From an uncultured Candidatus Saccharibacteria bacterium (lineage in GTDB: Bacteria > Patescibacteriota > Minisyncoccia > Phycocordibacterales > DSPV01): a stretch of 64,000 nt of DNA. A program made the translations under genes and the position numbers. The stretch spans positions 7,535 through 71,534 of the forward strand of contig CAYGFK010000002.1 of the NCBI GenBank assembly GCA_964349135.1, given 5' to 3'. Below, one piece after another: positions 325 through 63,654 of this stretch (within the stretch, counting starts at the first letter, position 1; the number at the start of each line of letters is the position of its first letter). The notes under the pieces are model-generated. The model was not told where the DNA came from. It made no database searches and saw nothing but the letters and a program-made list of their open reading frames with translations.

Positions 325-846
325 ATGAAGGAGTTCAAAAAAAGATTATTAGACGGGATACAGGTTGCGGCAATTGCGCTCGCAATTTCGTTTGGCGTTT
401 CCTACCTTTTTGCATGGACCGGCCCGGGATACACCACTCCCGGTGCGCTTCCTCCGACCGATAACGTGCCGGCACCGTTAAATATTGGAAACAATAACCA
501 AACGAAGACGGGCGATATTTGCACAACGGCTCCGGGAGGGACTGGTGCAACGGTTTGTCTGAGTAGCCAGCCGGCTGGGGGTGTCGCTAATATTTCAGGG
601 AGAGTGGTAGGGGGCGGGACACTTGTTAAAAGATGGGTAGGAAATTCATATATCGGATGGTGGTGTGGTTCGCCCACTGCCCCACAGCCAAATTTGTACT
701 GGGGGTCCATCGTGTGCAATGCGACATTTCCGTTTCAGTACAATTGTTTGTCTGGCGCAAGACTGGTGTACACCGGATTACAAGGTGACTATCTTTTGAC
801 AACAGTGGAGCCGGAAGGTCACCACTTTCTCTGCGTTACCGAATGA
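325..846 (+). CDS. Secreted or membrane-anchored Cys-rich Gly/Pro-rich hypothetical protein (173 aa)
   Basis: N-terminal hydrophobic anchor (AAIALAISFGVSYLFAW), multiple Cys, no known catalytic motif. Confidence 0.5.
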   Translation: MKEFKKRLLDGIQVAAIALAISFGVSYLFAWTGPGYTTPGALPPTDNVPAPLNIGNNNQTKTGDICTTAPGGTGATVCLSSQPAGGVANISGRVVGGGTLVKRWVGNSYIGWWCGSPTAPQPNLYWGSIVCNATFPFQYNCLSGARLVYTGLQGDYLLTTVEPEGHHFLCVTE

Positions 847-10305: not shown

Positions 10306-10817
10306 TGAAGTACTCTCGAGAAAAAGGATTTTCCGTCGTCGAGTCCATCATTTATCTCGCTTTAACAGCGCTTTTTATGGTGCTTATCATTGACACGCTC
10401 GTCTCTATTTCCGGTTCTTATCGGAAACTGACGCTCGCGCGTGTCCTCTCACATTCAGCAAGTGTTTCTATGGAGCGTATGACACGCGAACTTCGTACAG
10501 CAAGCGATATTGACCCGGTTGGCAGTGTGTTCGATTCTGATTTCGGGCGCGTCGTACTACATACGACCGATGCAAATGGCGTGGTTGGGACGGTTTTGTT
10601 TGCGCTTGAGGATGGAGCCGTCGTACTTTACGAGAACGGCGTATTGACCGGTCGGCTTACTACTCTGAGTGCGAGTACGACCTCTCTCTTTCTCCATTTC
10701 TATGACAACGGAACGTCCGAAGCACTCTCAATCGACATGACTCTTGAGGCTACACGTGGCGATGAAACGCGAGTCGAATCGTTCCGGACCATGGTAACAC
10801 TCAGGAATTCTCCATAA
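10305..10817 (+). CDS. Prepilin-type pseudopilin (170 aa)
   Basis: N-terminus MKYSREKG^FSVVESIIYLALTALFMVLII is the canonical G-F-S-x-x-E prepilin signature. Confidence 0.7.
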   Translation: MKYSREKGFSVVESIIYLALTALFMVLIIDTLVSISGSYRKLTLARVLSHSASVSMERMTRELRTASDIDPVGSVFDSDFGRVVLHTTDANGVVGTVLFALEDGAVVLYENGVLTGRLTTLSASTTSLFLHFYDNGTSEALSIDMTLEATRGDETRVESFRTMVTLRNSP

Positions 10818-10821
10818 CCAC

Positions 10822-12135
10822 ATGACATTGATGACCCACAGAAACTATGCAAATCGTGAGCGGGGACAAGTGCTGTTCGGGACCGTATTACTTTTTCTGT
10901 TTATCTCCTCAATTATTGTTTTTGGTATTAGCCGCTCAGTTTTTCACCAGCTTAAGACGGCGATTGATTTTAGCGACTCACGCGAGGGCTATTTTCTTTC
11001 AGAGGCGTTAGCGGAAGACACGGTATATCGCATTATGCATGCGTACCCTGTTGGGTTCAGTGCAACGCTCAGTCTCAACGGACAGACGGCTTCCGCGCTG
11101 ATAATTGACGGTCCGGGTACAAAAGAAATTATCTCGACGGCCGATTGGGATGATTTGGTACGCAAAACAAGAATGCGTATGACGTTTGGGAGCGGTGGCT
11201 CGTTCTTCTACGGCGTGCAGGTCGGACAGGGGGGTCTTGATATGTACAACACATCGGAGGTTATTGGGAATATTCACTCAAGCGGACCGGTAACCGGTAA
11301 TAACTCCACGCAAAGTAATTACAATTATATTCGAGGTGATGTACTTTCATCAGGCACCGGTGGCATTATTTCAAAGATTCACGCTACAAGTTCTGCGTAT
11401 GCGCATACCATACAAAATTCCGTTATCGATAAAGATGCTTATTTCCAAGTACTAACCGGTACGACGGTTGGGGGGAATCAGTATCCAGGGAGTCCCGACC
11501 AGGCGACAACGTCACTTCCGCTTGATGAAAGTCTTATTGATGATTGGGAGGCAGATGCAGTAGCCGGCGGTAGCGTTACCTGTACAAATGGTGAGTATTT
11601 AATTGATGCCGATACAACTTTCGGACCTAAGAAGGTTCCGTGCGACCTTCGAATCGAGAGTAATCCAACAATCACCATCAACGGAGCAATTTGGGTGACG
11701 GGTAATATACATGTTGTAAACCAGCCGGTTGTTCGAGTGAGTCCGGCCTATACTGACGTCACCATCCCCATTATTGCGGACAACCCGTCTAATCGCCTTA
11801 CCTCAAGCAGTATTCTTCTTGACAACAATACGTTTTTCCAGGGAAGCGGAAATAATTCTTACCTCTTGCTCGTTTCCCGCAATGAAAGTGCTTCGCAGGG
11901 AGGTGCGGTGGACGCAATTACGCTTGCTAATAGCGTGAGCGGGGAACTGCTGTTATATGCCCCTCAAGGTAATGTAACTATGAACAACTCTGTGGATTTG
12001 CGCGAGGTAACCGCATACAAGCTTACACTCAGAAATAGCGCCAAAGTTATCTATAAAAGTGGGCTTGCTGATGTTCATTTCACCTCGGGTCCAAGCGGTG
12101 GATATGAAATTCTCGACTGGCGAGAGATAGAATAG
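10822..12135 (+). CDS. Pilus-associated large minor-pilin-like protein (437 aa, N-terminal TM anchor)
   Basis: N-terminal hydrophobic helix (VLFGTVLLFLFISSIIVFGI) then a large Thr/Ser/Gly/Asn-rich domain. Positioned as the last gene of the pilin operon, as for PilX/PilY-like tip proteins. Confidence 0.4.
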   Translation: MTLMTHRNYANRERGQVLFGTVLLFLFISSIIVFGISRSVFHQLKTAIDFSDSREGYFLSEALAEDTVYRIMHAYPVGFSATLSLNGQTASALIIDGPGTKEIISTADWDDLVRKTRMRMTFGSGGSFFYGVQVGQGGLDMYNTSEVIGNIHSSGPVTGNNSTQSNYNYIRGDVLSSGTGGIISKIHATSSAYAHTIQNSVIDKDAYFQVLTGTTVGGNQYPGSPDQATTSLPLDESLIDDWEADAVAGGSVTCTNGEYLIDADTTFGPKKVPCDLRIESNPTITINGAIWVTGNIHVVNQPVVRVSPAYTDVTIPIIADNPSNRLTSSSILLDNNTFFQGSGNNSYLLLVSRNESASQGGAVDAITLANSVSGELLLYAPQGNVTMNNSVDLREVTAYKLTLRNSAKVIYKSGLADVHFTSGPSGGYEILDWREIE

Positions 12136-44553: not shown

Positions 44554-44958
44554 ATGCAAAAAATCCTGCTTTTCAGCTCACTTCTTCTCTCAACACTCCT
44601 TTTCTTCTTACATAAGTTGGCGGGCGCGTATTCACTATATTTCATGCTCCCGTGGTTTGATTCGATGATGCATTTCCTCGGGGGTCTTGCTCTCGGAGCG
44701 CTCTTTTTATGGTTTTCCCTCTTTCTCAAGAGATACGTGAGACTCCTGTCAGCAGTTCCCACAAATCTTCTTGTGCTCTGCTTTGTGCTCTTGATAGGGG
44801 TTGGGTGGGAACTCTTTGAGTATATCTATGACATCACATATCCAGTCTTCACCACGTACGGGTTTGATACAGCGAAGGACCTCGTAGTGGATATTTTCGG
44901 TGCTTGGCTTGTGGTATGGTTATATGCGCATTATGCGCCGACGACTATAACAACATGA
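44554..44958 (+). CDS. Hypothetical 4-TM membrane protein
   Basis: Four hydrophobic helices; 134 aa. Confidence 0.45.
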   Translation: MQKILLFSSLLLSTLLFFLHKLAGAYSLYFMLPWFDSMMHFLGGLALGALFLWFSLFLKRYVRLLSAVPTNLLVLCFVLLIGVGWELFEYIYDITYPVFTTYGFDTAKDLVVDIFGAWLVVWLYAHYAPTTITT

Positions 44959-46328
44959 TTTCGTCATCAATCACTTTTTTTGGAGGGGTTCGGGGGCCGA
45001 CGGGTGCCAATTTTCTTTTTGAAATTGGTGGCGATAAGTCGCAGCGCGTGCTCGTTGATTGCGGTTTGTTTCAGGGTGAGCAATATGCCACTGAAGAAAA
45101 CCGAAAAGCTTTTGCCTACGACCCCGCTTCCGTTCAGGCGCTTTTCATTACCCATGCGCACATGGACCATATCGGGAGAATACCGATTTTGGTGAGGAAT
45201 GGGTACCACGGTCCGATTTACTCGACCCCGCAGACGCGCTCGATTGCTGAGCTCATGCTCCAGGATGCACTCAAGATTATGCGCTACGAAGCTCATGACG
45301 CTAAGCAGGAGCCTTTGTATGAAGACCATGATGTGGCTAGAGTATTTGGCCAGTGGAACGATATGCCCTACCACACACCACTTCCGCTCAAGGACGGAGT
45401 GACCGTTGTTGCCAAGGACGCAGGCCACATTCTCGGTTCGGCGTTTTTTGAGTTCGAGCGTAACGGGAAGAAAGTAGTTTTTTCTGGCGACCTAGGTAAT
45501 ACCCCGTCACTTCTCGTTAGAGATACAGAACCGCTCTCAGGAGCATCATATCTTGTTATTGAGAGCGTGTATGGTGACCGGAATCACGAAGACCGTGATT
45601 CACGCCGAAAGGTTCTTAAGGCCGCCGTGGAGAGGTCTATTGCCGAGAAAGGAGTTCTTGTCATCCCAGCATTTTCATTGGAGCGGAGTCAGATGATTCT
45701 CTATGAGTTGAACAATATGGTTGAAGACGGGGAAGTGCCATCCGTACCGGTATTTCTTGATTCTCCACTTGCGATAAAGGTGACGAAGATTTACCGAGAG
45801 ATGAGGCGAGAGATGAAGCAAGAAGTACGTGATGAGATTGCGTCAGGGGACGATATTTTCAAATTTCCAAAACTTTCTTTTACCGAGACGGCGCAGGAAT
45901 CACGACAAATTGACCTTGTTGAGAATCCAAAGATTATCATTGCCGGAGGCGGTATGTCGGAAGGAGGTCGTGTGATTGGGCATGAGCAAAGCTATCTTCC
46001 TGATGCCCGCAATACCGTTCTTCTGGTGGGTCATCAGGCCGCGGGGACGCTCGGTCGCGCTCTGCTTGAGGGCGCAAAAAAAGTAGTTATTCGGGATAAA
46101 ACGGTTGAGGTCAGAGCTACTATTATGTCGGTAACGGGTTACTCATCGCATAAAGACTCTGACCATCTCGTTGAGTTTGTTGGAGATTCAGCTGAGACGC
46201 TCAAGCAGGTGTTTGTGGCGATGGGGGAACCTAAAGCGTCACTTTTTCTGGCCCAGAGGATTTCGAATGAGTTTGGTATAAAAGCTGTGTACCCGGAGCT
46301 CGGGTCTCGGCATGAGATAGAGTTTTAA
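44955..46328 (+). CDS. MBL-fold β-CASP ribonuclease (RNase J/CPSF-like)
   Basis: HxHxDH motif ITHAHMDHIG; β-CASP region; about 458 aa. Confidence 0.75.
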   Translation: MISSSITFFGGVRGPTGANFLFEIGGDKSQRVLVDCGLFQGEQYATEENRKAFAYDPASVQALFITHAHMDHIGRIPILVRNGYHGPIYSTPQTRSIAELMLQDALKIMRYEAHDAKQEPLYEDHDVARVFGQWNDMPYHTPLPLKDGVTVVAKDAGHILGSAFFEFERNGKKVVFSGDLGNTPSLLVRDTEPLSGASYLVIESVYGDRNHEDRDSRRKVLKAAVERSIAEKGVLVIPAFSLERSQMILYELNNMVEDGEVPSVPVFLDSPLAIKVTKIYREMRREMKQEVRDEIASGDDIFKFPKLSFTETAQESRQIDLVENPKIIIAGGGMSEGGRVIGHEQSYLPDARNTVLLVGHQAAGTLGRALLEGAKKVVIRDKTVEVRATIMSVTGYSSHKDSDHLVEFVGDSAETLKQVFVAMGEPKASLFLAQRISNEFGIKAVYPELGSRHEIEF

Positions 46329-51155: not shown

Positions 51156-51175
51156 TGTGGAGATGGGCGGAATCG
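51156..51175. repeat. Direct repeat of the tmRNA 3' terminal 20 nt (TGTGGAGATGGGCGGAATCG): distal att-site copy
   Basis: Identical 20-mer to + strand 57570-57589 (ssrA 3' end). Confidence 0.7.
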
Positions 51176-51237
51176 GTCGGGGGATAATTTATCCACACAC
51201 GCGATTTATGGAGGAGAAACGGTGCTAACATAAATAC

Positions 51238-53010
51238 ATGTCTATGTACAAATACGTTATTATATCAGCGCTTATCATTTTAAGTTCCGTTATAAGCGCT
51301 GATTTTACTTATGCCCAGAATGTTGGTCCCGACCAGCAGGCATTTTTCGACGTTCCAAAAATCACTAATAATCTTTCATTGGGAAGCGAAAACCATGACG
51401 TTTCAATTTTACAGAACTTTCTTAAAAGGATCGGAGGTATTTACCCGGAAGGACTTATTACGGGCTATTTTGGGAGTCTGACACAGAACGCGGTCAAAAG
51501 ATTCCAACAATTAGTGGGGATAGAAACTGCGGGCACTGTTGGTCCAATTACGCGGTTGGCAATTAATACGTGGATGTTGGCTGCGGCGTCAGAGTCGGGC
51601 AATGCCCACCGATCTGACAACGCGTCGCCGGCCACCCCTGCAACTCCCGCAACGCCCGCGACACCATCTCCTGGTGGAGGACCTGCAACTCCCGCAACGC
51701 CCGCGACACCAGCCGTTCCAGACCATGTATTAGTTTCACCTCCTCCTCCACCGACGCCGCCAATTATTCCCCCGCCAGCAACGACGACGCCGCCAATTTC
51801 AACGACGACACCTCCAGCGATACAGCCTCCTTCGACCACTACACCGCCGACAGCTACTTCTACAAAATTTATAGTGGGAGATAGGGTATACGCAACTATC
51901 AATCTAAATGTTCGCGACACGCCTTCATTGTCCGGCACCCTTCTCGGTGTTCAGGCATCAAGTTCTTTGGGGCTGATTACCGGTGGTTCGCTAAGTGCTG
52001 ACAATTATTATTGGTGGAATGTTGATTTTGATTCCGGAACTGATGGATGGAGTGTAGAGAATTATCTTGAGAAAGTAGTGGTGTCGCCACCGCCACCACC
52101 CGAAGGTGAACAGCGTATTACGTCAAATACAGCAAATCAGAATTATCCTTCAGTTTACGGCGAAAATATAGTTTGGGAAGACAGAAGGAACGGAAACATA
52201 GACATCTACGGTTACAATTTGACTACAGGGATTGAGAGTCGCATAACTTCAAGCATTGGTGACGAAATACGCCCGTCAATTTTCGGAAATCAATTAGTTT
52301 ATATAGATAGACAGCCAGACCTTTCAAATCCTGGGCATGACACAATTCAGATATATCTTTCTGATTTACAGAACAGCGTCACTAGTCCTCTGATTGGCGA
52401 TTCAAAATTCCAATCTGCGCCCACGATATGGGGGAGCAAAGTCTCTTATTTGGACCATAGTTTAAGTGGAGATAGGGTTTTGTTCGTCTATGATATGTTG
52501 ACTCATTCAAAGGAGCTTGTTGCGAATGGACCAAGTATTACACAACCACATATGGCTGGTGATTTCGTGGTCTGGGCAAATGGTCAAGGCGGGATTTACA
52601 AAACATACACGTATAATTTGCAGACCAAGGTCACGCGTTTGATCACCAACCACTCAGGTGATCAGTTTGCCCCCAAAGTCTCTCGTGAAGGTAAGATTGT
52701 TTTCGCAGACCGAAGGAGTGGGGCAGGCGCAGGTGATTGGAACGTATATATGTTTGATTTGGTTACCAATGAAGAGACGAGAATCACTCCAGAAAATGGT
52801 AGTCAACCTATAGATCTATCGATTTCTGACAAGTGGATTTCATGGTCGCGCGATAGAGATGTCTTTGTGTACAATCTAGCCTCCGGAGTAATAAACAGAT
52901 TGACCTCTCTCCCGACAGAAGAAAAGCAGACGAACCTTTATGGAGATTTGTTGGTTTGGGCAGACGGCAGGGACAGTCAGGATGATATTTATTCGATTTT
53001 CTTGCGTTAG
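51238..53010 (+). CDS. Secreted protein: PG-binding domain + Pro/Thr/Ala linker + SH3b-like domain + β-propeller (PD40/TolB-like) repeats
   Basis: Signal peptide. PG_binding_1-like motif. (ATP)n repeats. 'VGDRVYATINLNVRDTPSLSG…' is SH3b-like. Repeated '…WxDxRxGNxDIY…' blades. Confidence 0.65.
   Translation: MSMYKYVIISALIILSSVISADFTYAQNVGPDQQAFFDVPKITNNLSLGSENHDVSILQNFLKRIGGIYPEGLITGYFGSLTQNAVKRFQQLVGIETAGTVGPITRLAINTWMLAAASESGNAHRSDNASPATPATPATPATPSPGGGPATPATPATPAVPDHVLVSPPPPPTPPIIPPPATTTPPISTTTPPAIQPPSTTTPPTATSTKFIVGDRVYATINLNVRDTPSLSGTLLGVQASSSLGLITGGSLSADNYYWWNVDFDSGTDGWSVENYLEKVVVSPPPPPEGEQRITSNTANQNYPSVYGENIVWEDRRNGNIDIYGYNLTTGIESRITSSIGDEIRPSIFGNQLVYIDRQPDLSNPGHDTIQIYLSDLQNSVTSPLIGDSKFQSAPTIWGSKVSYLDHSLSGDRVLFVYDMLTHSKELVANGPSITQPHMAGDFVVWANGQGGIYKTYTYNLQTKVTRLITNHSGDQFAPKVSREGKIVFADRRSGAGAGDWNVYMFDLVTNEETRITPENGSQPIDLSISDKWISWSRDRDVFVYNLASGVINRLTSLPTEEKQTNLYGDLLVWADGRDSQDDIYSIFLR
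51638..51717 (+). repeat. Tandem in-frame repeat (GCAACTCCCGCAACGCCCGCGACACCA ×2, with shorter ACC-CCT-GCA units) encoding the (ATP)n linker
   Basis: A 27-nt unit duplicated 53 nt apart inside the CDS. Confidence 0.6.
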
Positions 53011-53020
53011 TTTTAAATTT

Positions 53021-53034
53021 TGGAGATGGGCGGA
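53021..53034. repeat. Partial direct repeat of the tmRNA 3' end (TGGAGATGGGCGGA): middle att-site copy
   Basis: 14-nt identity with 57572-57585. Confidence 0.55.
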
Positions 53035-53463
53035 CGCTTCGCTATCGAACTCGTCTCTCGTAAACTCAGGACTCTTTGAGAACACTACAAGAGTACTTCA
53101 TTTTTCTAAAACGGAAGACCGTTAAGAAAAATTAGTCGCTCCTCCGTTCTCAACACCTCGCCTTCGGCGGGTCGCTCTCCGCCACGGGAGAACTCCCGTT
53201 CTCCCGACCCCTCTCTCGGTTCGATTCCGCACGCACGTGAAGCAGTTCACGTGCTCCACTCCATTCAAAAAACAAAAGCGCCCGAAGGCGCTAATGTTTT
53301 TACGAATGGAAGTGGCTGGTAATACATCGAACTCCTTAAAAACCTACCTCACAAAATTTTGGGCGTATTACCAAGGGAGTCAAAACCTTCAGAAATTGCT
53401 TGCTACGGCTTAGCTAAACGCAAAGAGGTTATACAGGAGTAGGGTATAGAGTATAATCAGTCC

Positions 53464-53736
53464 ATGACGAAAGAGGAAATTCAATTTTTCTTTTTTATTC
53501 TACTTCCCATGATTGCCGTTGGAGTTAGTTCCATATACTTGGGAATTAAGATAATACTCGATAAAAAGACACGAGCTTGGTGGGCAAAATGGTGGTGGGG
53601 ATTCTTAAACAACCAAAAGCGTGCAGAAAAACAGGTCGTATTCTTCGACGCACCAATAGTAATTGGAGCAGGGATGATGATTCTTTGGACTGTCCTTTCA
53701 ATCGTGCTTGCCCAATTCAATATCTTTATCTTCTAG
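53464..53736 (+). CDS. Small 2-TM membrane protein (90 aa)
   Basis: Hydrophobic helices; island cargo. Confidence 0.35.
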   Translation: MTKEEIQFFFFILLPMIAVGVSSIYLGIKIILDKKTRAWWAKWWWGFLNNQKRAEKQVVFFDAPIVIGAGMMILWTVLSIVLAQFNIFIF

Positions 53737-53768
53737 GGTAAACGGACACTGCTATAAAAATAATCTCT

Positions 53769-54017
53769 ATGAACCGTCCATCGAATAAACCTTTATTAGT
53801 GACCTGCGTCGTATTTGGAGTAGTCGTAATCTGGTTTGCTGGCGTGATAATCCACCTCGAAAGATACCGTTATGCCAACCAGTCGCATCTCTGCTATAAA
53901 CCCGAGAAAAATTATGTCGTAGATGCTGATGCCTATTTTGAGCGAGAGAATTGCCTAGAAACAGCAGTCCCACGAACGTCAGGTCTCTGGGATTTGTATT
54001 ATGCATTAACCGACTAA
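53769..54017 (+). CDS. Small 1-TM membrane protein (82 aa)
   Basis: Hydrophobic helix; island cargo. Confidence 0.35.
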   Translation: MNRPSNKPLLVTCVVFGVVVIWFAGVIIHLERYRYANQSHLCYKPEKNYVVDADAYFERENCLETAVPRTSGLWDLYYALTD

Positions 54018-54021
54018 AAAA

Positions 54022-54294
54022 ATGCTAGAAATTTTTGAATGGATTGTTTGGGGAATTGCAATATTTATAGCTTTGAGTCTCACTTACGGTGCTGTAAGAC
54101 GATTGATGGCAAAACAGCCAGTAATGAAGGCAACTTTGTATCAGGGGATATTCATCGGGGTGGCGTCGTTATTCCTTTTATTCTCTCCGTCGGTCAGCAA
54201 GCTCCATTTAATTTGGATTGTGCCCGTCTGCTTCCCATTAATTGGATATCTCACTTTCCGCTCAGCTACGAAAGAGGTTGAGGAGGTAAAGTAA
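54022..54294 (+). CDS. Small 3-TM membrane protein (90 aa)
   Basis: Hydrophobic helices; island cargo. Confidence 0.35.
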   Translation: MLEIFEWIVWGIAIFIALSLTYGAVRRLMAKQPVMKATLYQGIFIGVASLFLLFSPSVSKLHLIWIVPVCFPLIGYLTFRSATKEVEEVK

Positions 54295-55024
54295 TAGCCT
54301 TTTTATTTGTCGTACCAAAGTGAATTTCATTACCCTCGATGAGTCGGGATTCTTGTCCTTTCTCGTATCTTTCTTTGAAGTCAGTGAGGTGGGGTCGTGA
54401 GTCGACTGTTCCATGCTCAAAAATTGGGAGTAGTTGAACCAGCGTGTAAGAGGTCTGCACTTCTTCTCTAGTAGGAATTTTTCCTGTCAGGAAGATGCCA
54501 GTAAATACCACGAAGACATGCTTGATGGTCGATTTAATATCGGCTAGTTTTGTGGCAAGTGTACGGAAATCATATAAGGATGGCGTTAAGACTAGGCAAA
54601 CCAAAATAGTGTTTGGTTCGTATGTATTTTCAATCATTTTGTCTCGAATTGTCTCAAAAAGTTTATTGGGCTCTTCCCGATGTTCTACAACCTCAACCTC
54701 ACGTAAGTAGCCCCTATGTGCACCAGGCTTATCTTCTTTAAAAGTTATAACGAGCCCGTCTGGTGGGTCTGGATTTGGCATATTCATCCACCAGTCAACG
54801 TGAGAATCGTCTTTCAATGCCATGGCAACCATAGAAACGCAATAACGTTCCCTGTCCTTTTTGGGCAGCTTAAGAATATCTTTGCCATTGTTAACCATAG
54901 ATTCGGCATATTTAAGCAATCCCTTTACAGGATGATCCCATTGCTTAGCACGAGAATTAATGTCTCGCAGGTTTATCTTCGTCATTAGTGAATCACCTTC
55001 TTTTTCTCCGAAATAAAATGCCAT
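54266..55024 (-). CDS. Hypothetical cytoplasmic protein (252 aa), possible PD-(D/E)xK-like nuclease
   Basis: 'PDGLVITFKEDK' gives a D-x7-E-x-K spacing. Convergent with and overlapping the third small TM gene. No firm family assignment. Confidence 0.4.
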   Translation of the reverse strand: MAFYFGEKEGDSLMTKINLRDINSRAKQWDHPVKGLLKYAESMVNNGKDILKLPKKDRERYCVSMVAMALKDDSHVDWWMNMPNPDPPDGLVITFKEDKPGAHRGYLREVEVVEHREEPNKLFETIRDKMIENTYEPNTILVCLVLTPSLYDFRTLATKLADIKSTIKHVFVVFTGIFLTGKIPTREEVQTSYTLVQLLPIFEHGTVDSRPHLTDFKERYEKGQESRLIEGNEIHFGTTNKKAITLPPQPLS

Positions 55025-55372
55025 AGAGATATCTTATTACCAATTTCCGAATTAATACAAGAATTCCGGCCACATTCACTGGTTTACGTCTGTAGATAGA
55101 CGTTAGCTAATTGACCTACAGTGCCATAGTACATTGCATTACCCCTACCTAGACTGAGATACAAGTAAAACCACTCTCGCCCCATGCAAGTAGCCTACCC
55201 ACCATCTACCATTGCAAACTTGAAGGTAAACAAACCACCCCGGATACGACTTGAAAAGTGATATCCACAGCTCGTTACCCCTTGCCAGGTATCGGTGGCA
55301 CTTAGATATCGTTGAGTCATGGTACATGGTAGCGTTATCGGCATTATAAGTAATACAGCCCGAAGAGGGGCA

Positions 55373-55435
55373 GCGAAGCTTCCGTGTACCAACATGAGGC
55401 CGATCGCTATCCCTCTTCGGGTTTTATTGTTACCC
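55373..55435 (+). terminator. Long-range hairpin (CCCGAAGAGGG…CCCTCTTCGGG) + T-rich tail
   Basis: 11-bp perfect stem enclosing about 45 nt, followed by TTTTATTG; at the end of a 360-nt ORF-free stretch within the island. Confidence 0.4.
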
Positions 55436-55437
55436 AT

Positions 55438-55722
55438 ATGAAAAGCATAGAAAGAAGGTTTGCCAAGCTTCAGGAGTCACGACCTGGCTTGAGCGGTTAT
55501 ATGAATTTCGCTGGTGCAGTGAAGGATGGTCACTTTACCCCTAAGACCATTCATCGTTGGTTCAATCTTTTGGTCGATAAAGATGATTATTCTCGATCAG
55601 ATAAAAGAGCTCTATTCGCACACCTCGACTCGATTTCAAACCCTCCGAGGACGACAGGAATTGAGGGTAATTTTGTCCTTACGGCATCACCAATTAGTAA
55701 TCACGTAGTCCAGAGAGTATGA
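55438..55722 (+). CDS. Hypothetical small protein (94 aa) upstream of the recombinase
   Basis: Start trimmed to MKSIERRF, downstream of the hairpin. Confidence 0.35.
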   Translation: MKSIERRFAKLQESRPGLSGYMNFAGAVKDGHFTPKTIHRWFNLLVDKDDYSRSDKRALFAHLDSISNPPRTTGIEGNFVLTASPISNHVVQRV

Positions 55723-56024
55723 ACATAAAAATAACCCAAATAGAGCCACTTTCAATCGTGGTACATGAATCCATTTCGGTATCGGATGCAATCGTGGTCT
55801 TGGAGTTGTTTATCTACCGGATTACGACTTCAAGGGCGAAAGAGAGTAACGGATTAGTCGTATCTGTTGCTGAATATAGGAAGCTTCTTGGTGATTACCA
55901 AAGTACAGACGAACGCATCACAGATCGTCTGAGGTATCTCGAGGCTTTCTGCAGAAATATTATTAAACCTGAAATAAAAACATATGTCGTTACCAAATCA
56001 GGGGCGCATCAGGCGTCCACCTAA
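55719..56024 (+). CDS. Hypothetical small protein (101 aa), candidate DNA-binding protein or recombination directionality factor
   Basis: Immediately upstream of and overlapping the recombinase gene; no family recognised. Confidence 0.35.
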   Translation: MNIKITQIEPLSIVVHESISVSDAIVVLELFIYRITTSRAKESNGLVVSVAEYRKLLGDYQSTDERITDRLRYLEAFCRNIIKPEIKTYVVTKSGAHQAST

Positions 56025-57609
56025 GCGCCAACGTGGTGGAAGGAAAGTTTTAACCGGAGAAGTAGAGCCAGCTAACACAAAAGCGCTTGGCTATTGCAGG
56101 GTATCGTCTTTAACTCAAGCTACGGATGGACATGGTCTAGATAGCCAAGAGCATCGTTGTCGAACATTTGCTGAACAAAAGGGACTAGAGATGGTAAAAG
56201 TCTTTCGTGATTCTCATACTGGCGGAGGCGATTTTTGGCAACGTCCGGCCATGAGAGAACTTTTGGAATACGTTGATGCACATCCGACTGAAAGATTCAC
56301 GGTTATTTTCGACGATCTCAAACGATTTGCGAGGGACATCCAATTTCACTGGAAGCTACGAACGGAGTTTAGTGCTAGAGGTATTACACCAGCATGTCTG
56401 AACTTTAATTTCGAAGATACACCGGAAGGGGGTTTTATAGAAACAGTAATGGCTGCGCAGGGTGAGCTAGAACGAAAACAAAACCGGAGACAGGTGATGC
56501 AAAAACAAAAAGCTCGAATGGAGTTAGGGTATTGGCCATTTGCCGCTAGGAAGGGTTACACATCAGTAAAAGACCCTCTTCATGGAAAGATATGTAAACC
56601 AAACGCAGGAGGGGAAATATTGGCTGAAGCATTAGCTCTGTTTGAGAACAGGACACTCTTGCGTAAGGTTGACGTTGCCCGTTTCTTGGTCGAGAAGGGA
56701 TTCTGGACTGGTCAGAAACCAGAGAGATATATCGATAAGGTATCACACATACTGCAGGATCCTTTTTACTGCGGGGATATGGAGTATCCCGCATGGCAAG
56801 TAAAACGCAGGACAGCAAAACATGTGGGAATTATCACCAAGGATACTTTTGAGCGAATTCAAAAGCTAATAAGGCGAGAAACTACATTGAAGCGTATCCG
56901 TTGGGATATTTCGCCAGAGTTTCGTTTGAGGGGTTTAATTCTTTGTGACCATTGTGGCAATCATCTCACAGCTGCCTGGTCAAAGAAGACATTCCCGTAT
57001 TACATCTGTCATACAAAGGAATGTGAACGCTACGGCAAATCTATTCGCCGGGATGATATTGAAGGCCAGTTTGACATATTACTTCAGCAAAACACTTTGA
57101 AGCCCGAAATTGGTACTGTTGTCGGACTTGTCTTTGAGAGAGTTTGGGCGCAGGAAATTAATACCATGAAAGTAGAGGTCTTGAATCAAGAGGGTGAGAT
57201 TAGAATGCTTCAAGATAAGGTATTACAACTTACCGATGCCGCCTTGAATGCAAAATCTGCACAGGTAAAAGCTGTTTATGAGCAACAAATAGAAACTACT
57301 GCTGATGAGATCAACGAAATCAAGTCCCGATCGCCATTAGTTCCAACAGACCTAGCTATTCCTTATCGAACTGCCCTTGATAAAGCAACCGGATTACTTA
57401 AAAGCCCATATAAGATATGGCAAAACCTCAATGTTGTTGAGCAACACAGTCTTTACTACTTCGTTTTTGAGGAGAAATTACGATATAACCAAGTCTCTGG
57501 TTATCGAACTGAAAAATCCTCAAGTGCCATAAGGCTCTTTGAGGATTTTGTCAGTAAAAACTCCCTAGATGTGGAGATGGGCGGAATCGAACCGCCGTGC
57601 AAAGAGTAG
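55984..57609 (+). CDS. Large serine recombinase (resolvase/invertase catalytic domain + recombinase domain + zinc ribbon)
   Basis: Catalytic 'GYCRVSSLTQ' Ser motif. Central recombinase domain. C-terminal Cys cluster CDHCGNHLTAAW…YYICHTKEC. The 3' end overlaps the tmRNA 3' end. Confidence 0.85.
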   Translation: MSLPNQGRIRRPPKRQRGGRKVLTGEVEPANTKALGYCRVSSLTQATDGHGLDSQEHRCRTFAEQKGLEMVKVFRDSHTGGGDFWQRPAMRELLEYVDAHPTERFTVIFDDLKRFARDIQFHWKLRTEFSARGITPACLNFNFEDTPEGGFIETVMAAQGELERKQNRRQVMQKQKARMELGYWPFAARKGYTSVKDPLHGKICKPNAGGEILAEALALFENRTLLRKVDVARFLVEKGFWTGQKPERYIDKVSHILQDPFYCGDMEYPAWQVKRRTAKHVGIITKDTFERIQKLIRRETTLKRIRWDISPEFRLRGLILCDHCGNHLTAAWSKKTFPYYICHTKECERYGKSIRRDDIEGQFDILLQQNTLKPEIGTVVGLVFERVWAQEINTMKVEVLNQEGEIRMLQDKVLQLTDAALNAKSAQVKAVYEQQIETTADEINEIKSRSPLVPTDLAIPYRTALDKATGLLKSPYKIWQNLNVVEQHSLYYFVFEEKLRYNQVSGYRTEKSSSAIRLFEDFVSKNSLDVEMGGIEPPCKE

Positions 57610-57965
57610 GAAACCAAGCGTCTACGTAATCTAGGGTATCTTTTGTTTTTCGACGAAAGCGCTAGAAGATACACAAAACACGTTCCCGTCTAGTTTCTAA
57701 GGTTCGCGTGTGCGCCGAAACGAGCGCCTACGCTATCCTGAAAATATCATGCCCGCGTCCCGCCTTCAGGAGAGGTGAGGGCGAACACGTCTACGTATTA
57801 TGCGTGGACGAAAGCAAGGTCGTTAACACCAAAATATGGTGAGAGTACGGCCTGTGCCTTTGCAACTGCTGATTTGGCAGTTATAGGTTCCAACCGTTTA
57901 AGGAGTTATTGGAGCTCCATTACGCAACTTAGCGACCGTGCCCTTTGTCTAGGCCGATCATCCCC
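57572..57965 (-). ncRNA. ssrA: tmRNA (ssrA)
   Basis: Minus-strand 5' GGGGAUGAUCGGCC… and 3' …GGCGG-UUCGAUU-CCGCC-CAUCUCC-A. The acceptor stem pairs with a G3·U70 wobble, the AlaRS identity hallmark. Putative tag ORF ends …NDLAFVHA-UAA. smpB is adjacent. Confidence 0.8.
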
Positions 57966-60661: not shown

Positions 60662-60961
60662 TTGACTTCAACGTGTTTTCATGCTATTTTCTCTTTGGAT
60701 TCAGTTTCTAACCTCAACCAGTCCTTTGCTATGCTTATTGACCAATCAGATATCGTTTTCTTTGTTTTGATGGGTTCGTTTACGCTTTCAGTCGCCCTGT
60801 TTGCGTACGTTGCATTTCTCTATCCGCTGTTGGCGCGAACTTTCAGGCACAGGTCTGTCAGTGCCGTACTTGATTGGAGTGCTGTGAGCGCTCTTGGGCT
60901 CGCCGGGGTACTTGTATTTTTCGGCTTTGTGGCGACTCTTGTCGTTCTCAGTATGCCTTGA
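60662..60961 (+). CDS. Small 3-TM membrane protein (99 aa)
   Basis: ORF with hydrophobic helices only. Confidence 0.3.
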   Translation: MTSTCFHAIFSLDSVSNLNQSFAMLIDQSDIVFFVLMGSFTLSVALFAYVAFLYPLLARTFRHRSVSAVLDWSAVSALGLAGVLVFFGFVATLVVLSMP

Positions 60962-61042
60962 TATCGAGAAGGCTAAGCGCGGTTCGGTCCCCCGAACCGC
61001 GCTTTCTTTTTGTCTGTGTTCGATTACACTGTACCTAAACCG

Positions 61043-61075
61043 CCTGTAGCTCAATGGTTAGAGCACCAAGGTTAT
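61043..61075 (+). other. tRNA-like 5' fragment (acceptor CCGCCTG + D-arm GCTC-AATGGTTA-GAGC + anticodon-arm start) with no contiguous 3' half
   Basis: Paralogous to the 5' half of the adjacent tRNA-Ile. The matching 3' acceptor CAGGCGG-A occurs only about 290 nt downstream (61350-61357). Confidence 0.4.
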
Positions 61076-61108
61076 AGAAGGCAACGAGTGGTCATTGAAA
61101 ATATGTGT

Positions 61109-61182
61109 CCGCCCTTAGCTCAGTTGGTTAGAGCACGGAGCTTATACCTCCGGGGTCCTTGGTTCGAATCCAAGAGGGCGGA
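61109..61182 (+). tRNA. tRNA-Ile (anticodon UAU)
   Basis: Hand-folded cloverleaf: acceptor CCGCCCT/AGGGCGG, D-arm GCTC-AGTTGGTTA-GAGC, anticodon arm CGGAG-CTTATAC-CTCCG, T-arm CTTGG-TTCGAAT-CCAAG, discriminator A. Needs a tRNAscan-SE check. Confidence 0.65.
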
Positions 61183-61332
61183 CATATATTTGCAGTTGAA
61201 TCGAGTGAACCTTCTATATCATAGATATACCTTGGGGGTGAGAAGCGAACACTTGGAGCTTCGCAAGGTCGGAGTTCGCGAAGGCGAACGAGACGGGGTC
61301 GCGGGATTCGCCAGCGGGCGAATACCCGTGAC

Positions 61333-61361
61333 CTTGGTTCGAGTCCAAGCAGGCGGAACGA
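61333..61361 (+). other. tRNA 3'-half-like element (T-arm CTTGG-TTCGAGT-CCAAG + acceptor CAGGCGG-A)
   Basis: Perfect T-arm plus an acceptor 3' strand complementary to the 5' fragment at 61043. Its last 16 nt recur at 61476-61491. Confidence 0.4.
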
Positions 61362-61475
61362 AGTGACGACTGAAGCGAGCAAACTGCTTTGCTCGCGTTT
61401 GGATGAGAAGGGTTTTGCGCTGTCTTCTGACCGTAAAACTCCGGCCGATGCCCGATAAGCATCGGGAGTCCAAGC

Positions 61476-61491
61476 AGGCGGAATAAATTCC
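61476..61491 (+). repeat. 16-nt direct repeat (TCCAAGCAGGCGGAAT) of the tRNA-like 3' end
   Basis: Exact duplicate of 61346-61361, 130 nt downstream. Confidence 0.5.
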
Positions 61492-61500
61492 CAGTTTAAA

Positions 61501-63654
61501 TTACTCGAAATGTATCGGTGTTTTTTGTGCGAGGCGCTTTGCGAGTAGGGGAAATTGTGAGAGTTCCGAATCGTGTTCAATGAGGTCTCGTGCTTCATCG
61601 CGCGCCGCTTCCACCATTTTAATATTCTTGAGAGCTTCCATACCGACATCAGAGACGCCCCATTGCTTCCGCCCGTAAAGCTCGCCACTACCTCGGAGCG
61701 TGAGGTCGAGTTCGGCGAGTTCGAACCCGTTCTTTGCGGTACTAAGGGCCTTTAGTCGCTCACGTGAAGTTTTTGAACGAGAGTCGGTGAATACATAACA
61801 ATACGCCTGTTCGTTTGAGCGTACGACTCGACCGCGGAGTTGATGAAGCTGTGCGAGTCCGAATCGTTCGGCACCTTCAATGAGGATAATGGTTGCGTTT
61901 GGTACATTGACGCCGACTTCGATGACTGAGGTTGAGACAAGTATTTGAATTGAGCCGTCTTTTAAACGCTCCATGACACCCTCTTTATCACCTTGTTTCA
62001 GCTTGCTATGCATGAGCCCAATTTCGTATTCGGGGAAAATCTCTTTTTTTAGACGAGTCGCCTCTTCTTTTGCAGATTTTGCATTGAGAGCAAGTGCTTT
62101 TGTCGGGTCGGGTTCGTCGATACGCGGACAGATAACATAGGCCTGTCGCCCTGTTTTGAGTTGGTGCCTGATTGCTTCATAGGTCCTCTCGCGTTTCTCA
62201 GGGCTGACTACTTCGGTAATAATTGGTTTGCGTCCGGCAGGCATTTCATCGAGTACGGTCAGGTCGAGGTCGCCATAGAGGGTGAGCGCGAGAGTTCTCG
62301 GTATTGGTGTTGCTGTCATAGAGAGCAAGTGAGGTTTAATTTCAGATTTACTTGCGAGTGCGTGGCGTTGGCCGGTGCCAAACCGATGTTGCTCGTCTAT
62401 CACAACATAGGCGAGGTGTTTGAATACGACACTTTTCTGTATAAGTGCGTGTGTTCCGACGACAATAGGAATCTCGCCGTTTGCAACCCACTTCAGGAAT
62501 TGCGCTCGGGAGATGTCAGTCGCTTGATGTGGGTCCACTTTTGATGGAAATTTTTGACATCCGCTACCGGTCATGAGGCCGACATTGATACCGAGATGTG
62601 CGAAGTATTCGATAAACGATTCAAATTGTTGCCGAGCAAGTACTTCAGTGGGTGCCATGTAGGCGACCTGAAGATTGCCGAACGCTTGGCCAACGGGACG
62701 GCTGGTGACTACCGTATACGCGGTGGTGGCCGCGACAAAGGTTTTTCCTGAGCCGACATCGCCTTCGAGGAGTCGTGCCATGGGGTGTGGTCGTTTGAAA
62801 TCGTCATGAATAGCGTCGATAGCATGCTTCTGAGCTTTTGTCGGCGTGAAGGGGAATCGGGACCAGAATTCTTTTTCTGCCTTTTGGTCTCGGACAATGG
62901 AAAATGAGCGTTCGTGACTATGACGACTCTTCATTTGCTGTCGGTCGAGCTGTATCAAGAATACTTCTTCGAAGGCAAATCGTTTTCTCGCCACTTCGGC
63001 GTCGCGTGCGCTTTGGGGGGCATGAATCCAGATGAGTGCTGTTTTCAGAGAAGGGAGGTGGAGTTTTTTCAAAATTGATTCGGGAAGCGGGTCTTGGAGC
63101 GTGTCGAGGTGCCCCGAGGTGACGGCACGAGCTATGACATGTCTAAACCAGTTTGAGGTGACGCCCCGAGTTTCTGGATAGACCGGGTGGAGCGCATGTG
63201 TATCTGTTTCCGATGTAAAGAGTCCGTCTTGTGCGTTAGGTATTTCATCGACACGTTCTATTTTTGGGTTTGAGAAATAGAGCACTTCTTTACGTTGTGC
63301 GACTTTGCCTTCGACACGAACGCGCGCTCCCTCGTGGACCATTTTGGCGAGATAGGGCTGGTTGAACCACACCAGTTTGATGGTCGATTGCGCGTCGCGG
63401 AGTACCGCTTCTGCCATCGTTACCTTCTTTCGGAACGTTTTCACGGCTTTCAGTGCGTGGACGGTGCCGAATACAACAGCACTATCTCCTACGTGGAGTG
63501 AAGCAATCGTTTTTGTATCGGCGATTGATTCGTAGCGCGTTGGAAAGTGATACAGCAGATTTTCGACCGTTTCAAGCCCGAGACGTTTCAGGGCTTTTCG
63601 ATGTCCGTCGGACAGACGAGTAAGCGAAGCTATAAGGGCGCCATCGGTGTTCAT
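61501..63654 (-). CDS. recG: ATP-dependent DNA helicase RecG
   Basis: Wedge domain; helicase motifs GDVGSGKT, DEQHRFG; start trimmed to MNTDGAL. Confidence 0.85.
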   Translation of the reverse strand: MNTDGALIASLTRLSDGHRKALKRLGLETVENLLYHFPTRYESIADTKTIASLHVGDSAVVFGTVHALKAVKTFRKKVTMAEAVLRDAQSTIKLVWFNQPYLAKMVHEGARVRVEGKVAQRKEVLYFSNPKIERVDEIPNAQDGLFTSETDTHALHPVYPETRGVTSNWFRHVIARAVTSGHLDTLQDPLPESILKKLHLPSLKTALIWIHAPQSARDAEVARKRFAFEEVFLIQLDRQQMKSRHSHERSFSIVRDQKAEKEFWSRFPFTPTKAQKHAIDAIHDDFKRPHPMARLLEGDVGSGKTFVAATTAYTVVTSRPVGQAFGNLQVAYMAPTEVLARQQFESFIEYFAHLGINVGLMTGSGCQKFPSKVDPHQATDISRAQFLKWVANGEIPIVVGTHALIQKSVVFKHLAYVVIDEQHRFGTGQRHALASKSEIKPHLLSMTATPIPRTLALTLYGDLDLTVLDEMPAGRKPIITEVVSPEKRERTYEAIRHQLKTGRQAYVICPRIDEPDPTKALALNAKSAKEEATRLKKEIFPEYEIGLMHSKLKQGDKEGVMERLKDGSIQILVSTSVIEVGVNVPNATIILIEGAERFGLAQLHQLRGRVVRSNEQAYCYVFTDSRSKTSRERLKALSTAKNGFELAELDLTLRGSGELYGRKQWGVSDVGMEALKNIKMVEAARDEARDLIEHDSELSQFPLLAKRLAQKTPIHFE

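Follow-up and report, generated by a model that had tools for sequence, protein, structure and literature searches.

A tRNA-Ile(UAU) gene nested among the pieces of a second one in a Candidatus Saccharibacteria genome, with related loci in many metagenome assemblies

How can a complete tRNA gene come to lie inside another gene for the same tRNA? This question is raised by a locus next to recG in 64,000 nt of DNA from an uncultured Candidatus Saccharibacteria bacterium (assembly GCA_964349135.1, contig CAYGFK010000002.1, positions 7,535 to 71,534 of the forward strand). This whole stretch is hereafter called the window, and coordinates are given in its own numbering. A reading of the letters alone (the original prediction) had noticed an intact tRNA-Ile with anticodon UAU, the 5′ half of a similar gene upstream of it, a matching 3′ end downstream and a duplication of that end. 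Our analysis confirmed that the observation is real, i.e. that an inner tRNA gene is nested among the pieces of a second tRNA-Ile(UAU) gene. We think it more probable than not that a cassette free of open reading frames (ORFs) inserts in the anticodon loop of tRNA-Ile genes and brings a complete replacement gene with it, the flanking halves being relics.

On one side the locus is bounded by a terminator-like hairpin, situated after ftsH and a small membrane ORF, and on the other by the recG stop codon (61501). Its parts are listed in Table 1. ARAGORN calls a single tRNA here, ending at 61182 or 61183, and the same gene is found by Rfam (RF00005, 68.6 bits against a gathering score of 29), in agreement with the cloverleaf predicted at this position. 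The gene has the features of that family, namely: acceptor, anticodon and T stems of 7, 5 and 5 bp, a T loop of the form TTCRANY and a 7-nt anticodon loop. No second tRNA is called by ARAGORN elsewhere in the window. Both of the predicted halves of the outer gene are in place, together with a third piece (61226-61239) that had been overlooked. When 61040-61076, 61230-61239 and 61332-61358 are joined in silico, ARAGORN recognizes a perfect 73-nt tRNA-Ile(tat). A disrupted second tRNA-Ile gene, one of the explanations offered originally, is correct as a description. The exact spliced outer junction (GGTTATA followed by CCTTGG) would read ...CCAAGGTTATACCTTGGGGGTCCTTGG....

As it stands, the outer gene is called neither by Rfam nor by ARAGORN with introns of up to 3000 nt allowed (-i). 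Two insertions interrupt it: insertion 1 (61077-61225, 149 nt), which carries the inner tRNA, and insertion 2 (61240-61331, 92 nt), which is a copy of a structured sequence termed here the T-element. The stems of the outer gene differ from those of the inner gene by compensated changes, both in the acceptor stem (outer CCGCCTG/CAGGCGG, inner CCGCCCT/AGGGCGG) and in the anticodon stem (outer CCAAG/CTTGG, inner CGGAG/CTCCG), and each of the two acceptor types is found as the sole tRNA-Ile(UAU) in other species. The duplicated 3′ end also exists, but its length and position had to be revised: the repeat is 18 nt long, its copies diverge at the following base, and the 16-mer that had been placed at 61476-61491 lies at 61469-61484, about 7 nt away. 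Rfam searches of the region, at the gathering score and at E <= 10, returned only the inner tRNA, a reverse-strand tRNA look-alike and weak chance matches, and a promoter scan of the region found none. ORFs across the three inserts of 149, 92 and 107 nt measure 51-186 aa, lie on both strands and run through tRNA sequence or into recG; judged by position, without a protein-family search, they do not look like genes.

Table 1. Parts of the tRNA-Ile(UAU) locus, in 5′-to-3′ order.
Feature	Position in window	Strand	Evidence
Terminator-like hairpin closing the upstream gene; start of the tRNA locus	60975-61004	+	13-bp stem, then T run
Outer tRNA-Ile(UAU) 5′ half, positions 1-37: acceptor CCGCCTG, D arm, CCAAG, loop GTTATA	61040-61076	+	86% identity to inner tRNA
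Hairpin E, left arm: G AAGG C A AC GA GUG	61077-61092	+	Motif R-xxxx-N-A-RY-GA-P2 common to 36 units; covariation-supported pairing
Inner-tRNA leader, contains TTGAAAAT, GU at -2/-1, pairs with trailer	61093-61108	+	Inverted repeat of 20 nt, 90% complementary; minimum free energy (MFE) fold
Intact inner tRNA-Ile(UAU), functional gene	61109-61182	+	ARAGORN; Rfam RF00005
Inner-tRNA trailer, pairs with leader	61183-61199	+	Inverted repeat; MFE fold
Hairpin E, right arm: AUC GA GU G AA CCUU C UAUA U	61200-61219	+	Motif alignment; covariation
Short tail CATAGA between E and outer 3′ piece	61220-61225	+	Read from sequence
Outer tRNA middle piece: TATA (repeats positions 34-37), C38, CTTGG, variable-loop GGGT	61226-61239	+	86% identity to inner 61143-61156
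T-element copy between variable loop and T stem of outer tRNA: GGUCGGAG-hp1-CGAGACGGGGUCGCG-hp2-CGUGAC	61240-61331	+	Covariance model R1
Outer tRNA 3′ piece: C48, T arm CTTGG-TTCGAGT-CCAAG, acceptor CAGGCGG, discriminator A	61332-61357	+	82% identity to inner 61150-61182
Direct repeat copy 1, GAGTCCAAGCAGGCGGAA, T loop to tRNA 3′ end	61341-61358	+	100% identity to copy 2
107-nt insert between the repeats	61359-61465	+	Fold; spacer hairpin common to relatives
Direct repeat copy 2, displaced copy of tRNA 3′ end	61466-61483	+	100% identity to copy 1

In order to see what the locus looks like in other genomes, recG-linked loci from 80 species were scanned with ARAGORN for tRNA-Ile and for tRNA fragments around it. 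A tRNA-Ile gene is present at 60 of these loci, with the anticodon UAU in 59. A tRNA-Ile(UAU) gene adjoining recG is the ancestral arrangement, and UAU is the normal decoder of AUA in this clade. The anticodon had been called uncommon, which holds for bacteria in general, where tRNA-Ile with UAU is rare and goes with the loss of tilS (PMC3575796), but not for the group considered here. Both tilS and a CAU tRNA-Ile2 are predicted to be missing from the source genome. In our analysis the window was assigned to the Parcubacteria/Paceibacteria group of the Patescibacteria (CPR). By homology search, its RecG shares no more than 64-71% identity with proteins from Taylorbacteria-like and other Parcubacteria assemblies. 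The nearest of these relatives (71%) has a plain tRNA-Ile(UAU) 38 nt from recG. Within the same 80 loci, an outer 5′ half followed by the hairpin described below (E) and an intact inner tRNA-Ile(UAU) was found in L008, L021, L031 and L072 (loci are designated by L numbers), and decayed nested versions in L064 and L034. In L018 (~10660-11130, minus strand) the nested gene is a tRNA-Ile(GAU), which lies within a decayed version of the same gene; the insert there, a long leader/trailer hairpin, lacks the E motif, and one more insert is present in the D arm of the outer copy. Hence nesting is confined neither to the UAU gene nor to E.

Metagenome assemblies were then scanned for loci in which the left arm of E comes after an outer 5′ half. 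There were 61 matching loci, about 48 of them non-redundant, and an intact tRNA-Ile(UAU) lies 58-270 nt downstream in all of them except three truncated by contig ends and L138. The latter (Ga0129348_1059607), a short marine contig, has a tRNA-Ile(UAU)-like gene with an insert of ~58 nt at 37/38 and no inner tRNA; it is a chance match of the scan, and the gene, instead of carrying an E element, probably contains a eukaryotic or archaeal intron. Repeats can be collapsed or chimerised in metagenome assemblies, so an assembly artefact or chance similarity was considered as well. The nested order with matched junctions is present in assemblies from many projects and assemblers, and the pieces give a perfect cloverleaf; since the same arrangement recurs in dozens of independent assemblies, chance similarity is excluded, and we give this explanation as a whole practically no credence. 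A search of viral contigs found no nested tRNA-Ile pattern. When the insert sequences were compared with relatives by blastn-short and nhmmer almost nothing was found, and their homology is visible only through motif and structure.

The GC-rich part of the locus had been described as highly structured, and this description stands. The MFE fold of 61036-61362 is a nested structure of -145.8 kcal/mol (z = -7.4), and part of the segment matches a covariance model built from other genomes (see below). The fold is a rod with the inner tRNA at its tip, where pairing of leader and trailer (61096-61115 with 61175-61194) lengthens the acceptor stem; further out there is an internal-loop region, and then a closing helix in which UAUA, the outer anticodon nucleotides, and GAAGG pair with CCUUC UAUA. 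The outer arms of insertion 1 conform to a motif common to the other loci, TTATA-R-xxxx-N-A-RY-GA-P2 ... P2'-GA-RY-G-NN-x'x'x'x'-Y-TATA, which we term hairpin E. It occurs in two layouts. In the first, which is that of the window (21 units), the tRNA cassette sits in the apex of E; in the second (15 units), E is closed by a small hairpin, and a leader-tRNA-trailer hairpin follows it. Some loci (L094, L130, L119, L108) have both layouts or several solo E hairpins in tandem. The junctions are the same in all loci: TTATA closes the 5′ half, and TATA with position 38 opens the 3′ half. The TATA on both sides of the insertion is a possible target-site duplication, recombination core or part of the stem of the element. 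In the window the short tail forms, with its flanks, the mini-palindrome TATATC-ATA-GATATA, and homologous tails (CGTAGA, CAAAGA) are found in L072, L031, L081 and L092.

To assess whether the arms of E pair, the two arms of 36 units were aligned and compared with 500 shuffles. Standard pairs are formed by 95.4% of the cells, as against 73.8% in shuffles, and double changes are seen in 118 cells, as against 35; no shuffle out of 500 reaches the observed values, and the signal is lost when the partner column is slid. All of GC, GU, AU, CG, UA and UG pairs occur in the 2-bp RY/RY helix, beside which an invariant G and A are found on both strands (tandem G.A), and another A, opposite G, is conserved as well. 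With 40 G:U pairs as against 8 A:C pairs, the fold can be assigned to the tRNA-sense strand, in the form of either RNA or single-stranded DNA. On this comparative evidence E is a selected structure of the sense strand. The arm sequences xxxx, RY and P2 are variable and covary rather than being conserved, and the right terminus is not conserved either; variable, covarying arms argue against terminal repeats bound by a transposase. The pairing of leader with trailer was also looked at by ungapped comparison, which proved too noisy and was not used. In the window and in homologues (L072, L137, L123, L113, L130, L094) a conserved leader TTGAAA(A)T faces a conserved trailer TTGCA(A/G) with a conserved A.G mismatch, and the base preceding the inner tRNA is almost always U, with G before it.

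Several known architectures were considered for the insert. The terminal inverted repeats conserved among copies that a miniature inverted-repeat transposable element (MITE) derived from a DDE transposon would have are lacking, as the arms covary and the right terminus is not conserved. Hammerhead, K-turn/box C/D and bulge-helix-bulge (BHB) motifs, group II ends and integron attC boxes were rejected by inspection, as were a retroviral-type primer-binding site, for which there is no CCA complement, and a TIGR or IS110 bridge-RNA architecture.

The fate of the two nested genes was compared by scoring the acceptor, anticodon and T stems and the T loop in the 48 loci. The inner gene is perfect in 47 of them and the outer gene in 23 (Fisher p = 1.5e-8), even though the loci had been pre-selected for an intact outer 5′ half. 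The outer 3′ half is absent from L085, L087, L131 and L140 and mutated in L031 and L092, while in L088, L091, L100, L124 and L136 additional GC-rich inserts interrupt it in the T loop; the outer gene of the window was placed in the last group. Short GC-rich hairpin inserts often lie exactly in the T loop of decaying outer 3′ halves, between GGTT and CGAGTCC, also in L090, and L036, L088 and L102 have the insert end GGTGTACNGANTCTGTAAGA in common. The best explanation for this pattern is that the outer halves are relics, dispensable once the inner gene is intact.

Layers are one to three deep across the loci. In L081, for example, there are two layers on the 5′ side and two on the 3′ side, and the outer layer differs in layout from the inner one. 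The flanks of L112 and L134 are near-identical (~95%), but the two contigs carry different numbers of units made up of 5′ half, E and leader, which suggests a recent gain or loss of layers in one population. The inner and outer 3′ halves are identical in at least 8 loci, whereas in others (L089, L095) they differ throughout the acceptor stem; it therefore seems that some copies arise within a genome and that others come from a different lineage. This variability also bears on the notion that 61040-61357 is one conserved long RNA, e.g. a processing scaffold or regulator, with the tRNA-like parts as structural modules. Such an RNA would account for the very stable fold and for the covariation in both E and the T-element. 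The composite is not conserved as a unit, however: the closest relatives have a plain tRNA, the layouts vary (E around or beside the tRNA, one to three layers, with or without a T-element), and the outer parts decay. We therefore regard a single long RNA as highly improbable.

The observed properties of these loci are thus that the site is specific, namely TATA of the anticodon loop, that every complete locus contains a complete replacement tRNA, that the hairpin is conserved, and that the genes are nested and the outer one decays. In the replacement-cassette reading they would arise as follows. The cassette (61077-61225), i.e. the tRNA-Ile(UAU) on its leader/trailer helix within E, would have entered at the TATA of the resident anticodon loop, presumably at the DNA level, and split the resident gene. 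The tRNA of the cassette would then take over the decoding of AUA, so that the split halves become dispensable relics, and the insertion would be tolerated because the cassette replaces the gene that it breaks. Since the new tRNA recreates the target site, further copies could insert in it and build up Russian-doll layers. E may be the structure recognized at the insertion step, or it may help to release the inner tRNA from a composite precursor, where the GU at -2/-1 of the leader is a good context for RNase P, and the long helix could be a site for RNase III. A candidate RNA-processing enzyme of this organism, a beta-CASP/metallo-beta-lactamase RNase (RNase J or CPSF-like), is encoded elsewhere in the window (44904-46328, plus strand). 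If the cassette had a circular form, its junction would read x'x'x'x'-Y-TATAT-tail-TATA-R-xxxx, and in the window (tail-TATA-E-left) it would be, e.g., CATAGATATAGAAGG. The palindrome at the junction in the window, CCTTCTATATC-ATA-GATATAGAAGG, invites the speculation that a folded strand recombines at TATA. In a later event, the outer 3′ half would have been split by the T-element, bounded by inverted and direct copies of the tRNA 3′ end, and the 18-nt repeat downstream would mark another small insertion of the same layout.

Some points weigh against this account. The cassette has no linked recombinase, transposase or homing endonuclease, and mobility rests on anatomy and on population variation. 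No near-identical filled and empty alleles were found for the lineage of the window, whose closest relative is only 71% identical in RecG. For 14 units with several candidate right arms in the covariation analysis, the arm was chosen by the pairing of the 4-nt xxxx stem, the RY and P2 pairs playing no part in the choice. All stems of the outer gene in the window still pair perfectly once the insertions are removed in silico, which, like the 23 intact outer copies among the 48, would fit a recent insertion or continued function. Finally, the RNA-like character of E (covarying stems, conserved G.A, tolerance of G:U) is equally expected of a processed intron.

The last two points are also what recommends a true tRNA intron, in which the outer gene would be functional and E with the inner tRNA would be excised at 37/38, so that one transcript yields two tRNA-Ile. 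A tRNA with a large intervening sequence had been proposed originally, and the geometry fits: the insertion falls where tRNA introns canonically lie, and, as in archaeal pre-tRNAs, the insert pairs with nucleotides of the anticodon. What disfavours a spliced intron is the insert itself and the state of the outer gene. At E <= 10, Rfam detects neither a group I intron nor any other ribozyme family in 60900-61650, and the last base of the insert is A or U at every junction that the TATA repeat allows, so that there is no omega-G. In introns of the archaeal type the splice sites lie in a BHB, i.e. two 3-nt bulges separated by a 4-bp helix. No BHB can be drawn here by inspection, the 5′ junction being inside helix P1 without a bulge. 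The distance from E to the 3′ junction varies, being either a tail of 3-17 nt or the whole tRNA cassette. In the window, the outer gene would in addition need a second, unrelated insertion of 92 nt removed from its variable loop. Furthermore, E is never the sole interruption of a sole gene, and it is the outer copies that decay and not the inner ones. An intron of this kind is accordingly unlikely in our judgement; a bacterial tRNA intron of a novel type, distinct from both group I and BHB introns, recognized through a G.A hairpin and spreading by reverse insertion into anticodon loops, is a shade more doubtful still.

A further alternative is that the pieces are scars of integrase-mediated islands, larger elements having integrated repeatedly at tRNA-Ile and been deleted later. 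tRNA and tmRNA genes are classic targets of such islands, which leave a regenerated gene and a displaced fragment (PMC4383910), and the duplication of the tRNA 3′ end over 18 nt conforms exactly to this pattern. The window itself holds a classic island at its tmRNA gene (51156-57609). The copies of a 20-nt repeat, TGTGGAGATGGGCGGAATCG, start at 51156 and 57570, a partial one of 14 nt lies at 53021, and a large serine recombinase (Resolvase, Recombinase and Zn ribbon; 55984-57609) overlaps the tmRNA 3′ end. For the tmRNA (57571-57965, minus strand) the predicted tag, AKSAVAKAQAVLSPYFGVNDLAFVHA, is atypically long and lacks the usual ALAA-type motif at its end, which may be due to a mis-call of the resume codon by ARAGORN. 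At the tRNA-Ile locus, however, the anatomy is different. Classic integration leaves 3′ fragments downstream and not a 5′ half upstream of a complete gene, and the inserts hold no integrase or recombinase gene, the serine recombinase belonging to the tmRNA island. Moreover, the inserts are 107-149 nt long and ORF-less, of the same size and with the same conserved covarying structure in dozens of unrelated assemblies, and independent deletions would not produce such uniform small structured inserts. Of the suggestion of integration footprints, the insertion and the duplication resembling attachment (att) sites can be retained, while the loss of a large element cannot: a 149-nt cassette is still in place with its intact tRNA. 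Scars of lost islands are, in sum, an unlikely source of the locus, if a conceivable one.

Insertion 2 belongs to a second family, that of the T-element, which the region between the repeats resembles in layout. An alignment of 16 copies from beside tRNA-Ile, tRNA-Ser, tRNA-Leu and tmRNA genes, with the copy of the window left out of the seed, gave by RNAalifold a consensus of two hairpin arms, GAC-GGA-hp1-GA-GUC and GGGGUCGCR-hp2-YGUGAC. Double changes support 12 of its 19 pairs, and one G.U pair is invariant. The covariance model R1 matches the window at 61256-61341 (47.9 bits, E = 7e-16), and the 5′ portion of this copy is near-identical to a segment in L102. R1 finds 27 copies in 877 kb of relatives (L001-L080). 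With that of the window included, 19 of 28 copies lie at most 320 nt, mostly 33-84 nt, downstream of a tRNA or tmRNA gene on the same strand, the chance expectation being 2.4%. The typical order is the tRNA, a terminator-like hairpin, an inverted copy of the tRNA 3′ end, the core, and a direct copy of the 3′ end from the T loop onwards (L139, L007, L011, L104, L108); flanking repeats in relatives are 7-19 nt long. The element measures ~105 nt and comes after an exact inverted copy, 14-21 nt long, of the gene's 3′ end, and examples are found in L007 (8323-8428 and 4410-4514), L011 (4909-4992), L139 (~620-684, minus strand), L108 (6976-7262) and L028 (13478-13599). In the window it starts 58 nt after the inner tRNA (74 nt for the model match), and the outer T arm and acceptor strand come directly after it. 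This position, inside the outer gene and directly before its T arm, is atypical.

No family of this kind is present in Rfam 15, and Rfam searches of ten relatives bearing the T-element found only tRNA and tmRNA. In viral contigs 54 pattern matches to the core were obtained, all of which the covariance model rejected as chance. The 107-nt insert between the 18-nt repeats contains a hairpin (GCGAGCAAACUGCUUUGCUCGC, 61375-61396), then GUUUGGAUGAG (61397-61407), which is partly complementary to repeat copy 1, and a second hairpin (61445-61465). Its parts are in the order seen in T-elements but without the GGGGUCG core, and R1 does not match it even with filters off. Its spacer hairpin GCAAACUGCUUUGC is also found upstream of T-elements in L028, L086, L104 and L112. 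On this analysis the repeats flanking T-elements resemble the att sites that a tiny integrated element would have, and the core resembles a functional RNA.

Apparently, then, there is a widespread family of tRNA-in-tRNA replacement cassettes in Parcubacteria that is new to the literature searched, in which we found no bacterial tRNA-in-tRNA nesting described. If confirmed, it would represent a minimal selfish strategy built on a replacement gene, and it would imply that Patescibacteria possess an insertion activity guided by structure, be it a recombinase with folded single strands as its substrate or a mechanism at the RNA level. Should the intron reading prove true instead, this would be the first bacterial tRNA splicing that depends on proteins or on a novel ribozyme, with a tRNA as the cargo of the intron. 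For annotation, the consequence is that tRNA tables of these genomes will hold half-genes and overlook composite loci, and that the T-element is an abundant unannotated structured family at tRNA and tmRNA 3′ ends.

The locus can be compared with three groups of known systems. The first comprises introns. The archaeal tRNA-Trp intron carries a box C/D RNA, and tRNA introns have transposed in Thermoproteales (references 28-29 in PMC10714607). The cassette resembles archaeal and eukaryotic introns at 37/38 in its position beside the anticodon and in the pairing of the anticodon with the insert; like the tRNA-Trp intron it has a second functional RNA within the insert, and its G.A motif recalls K-turn or box C/D geometry. 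It differs from archaeal introns in its bacterial host, the absence of a BHB and of a known splicing endonuclease, the decay of the outer exons and the constant presence of a replacement tRNA. Group I introns interrupt the anticodon loops of bacterial tRNAs as well, e.g. tRNA-Ile of Azoarcus and tRNA-Leu of cyanobacteria. In uncultured phyla such introns are reported to be common (bioRxiv 10.1101/2020.01.27.920355). An interrupted bacterial anticodon loop is what the cassette shares with them; unlike them it has no core and no U(-1)/omega-G, is too small, and is built around a tRNA.

The second group consists of hairpins that are conserved in structure and variable in sequence, with conserved unpaired or non-canonical positions, such as integron attC, CTX phage attP(+) and MITEs of the REPIN or Correia type. 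E is similar to these, and shares with them a recombination point at the hairpin base and a non-autonomous nature. It lacks the R and L boxes of attC and conserved terminal inverted repeats, and no IntI, Xer, RAYT or transposase was identified for it; its cargo is a tRNA in or beside the hairpin, and its target is a tRNA loop.

Finally, tRNA genes are classic landing sites of mobile DNA, and the known elements bring an integrase and a replacement 3′ segment. Integrative elements that target tRNA and tmRNA genes, such as islands of the Islander type (PMC4383910), too insert site-specifically in an anticodon loop or T loop and restore function by the sequence that they carry, and they have displaced tRNA fragments and direct repeats at their borders. 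Unlike such islands, the element described here is 107-200 nt long, has no integrase or ORF and is defined by a covarying hairpin; it brings a whole nested tRNA gene instead of a 3′ segment, leaves a 5′ half and only TATA at the junction, and targets itself, giving nested layers. Insertion into a tRNA gene with restored function is thus known, and it is the implementation that appears to be new: an invading unit shrunk to about 150 nt, which has no protein gene, brings an entire replacement tRNA and has a covarying hairpin, not its sequence, as the defining feature.

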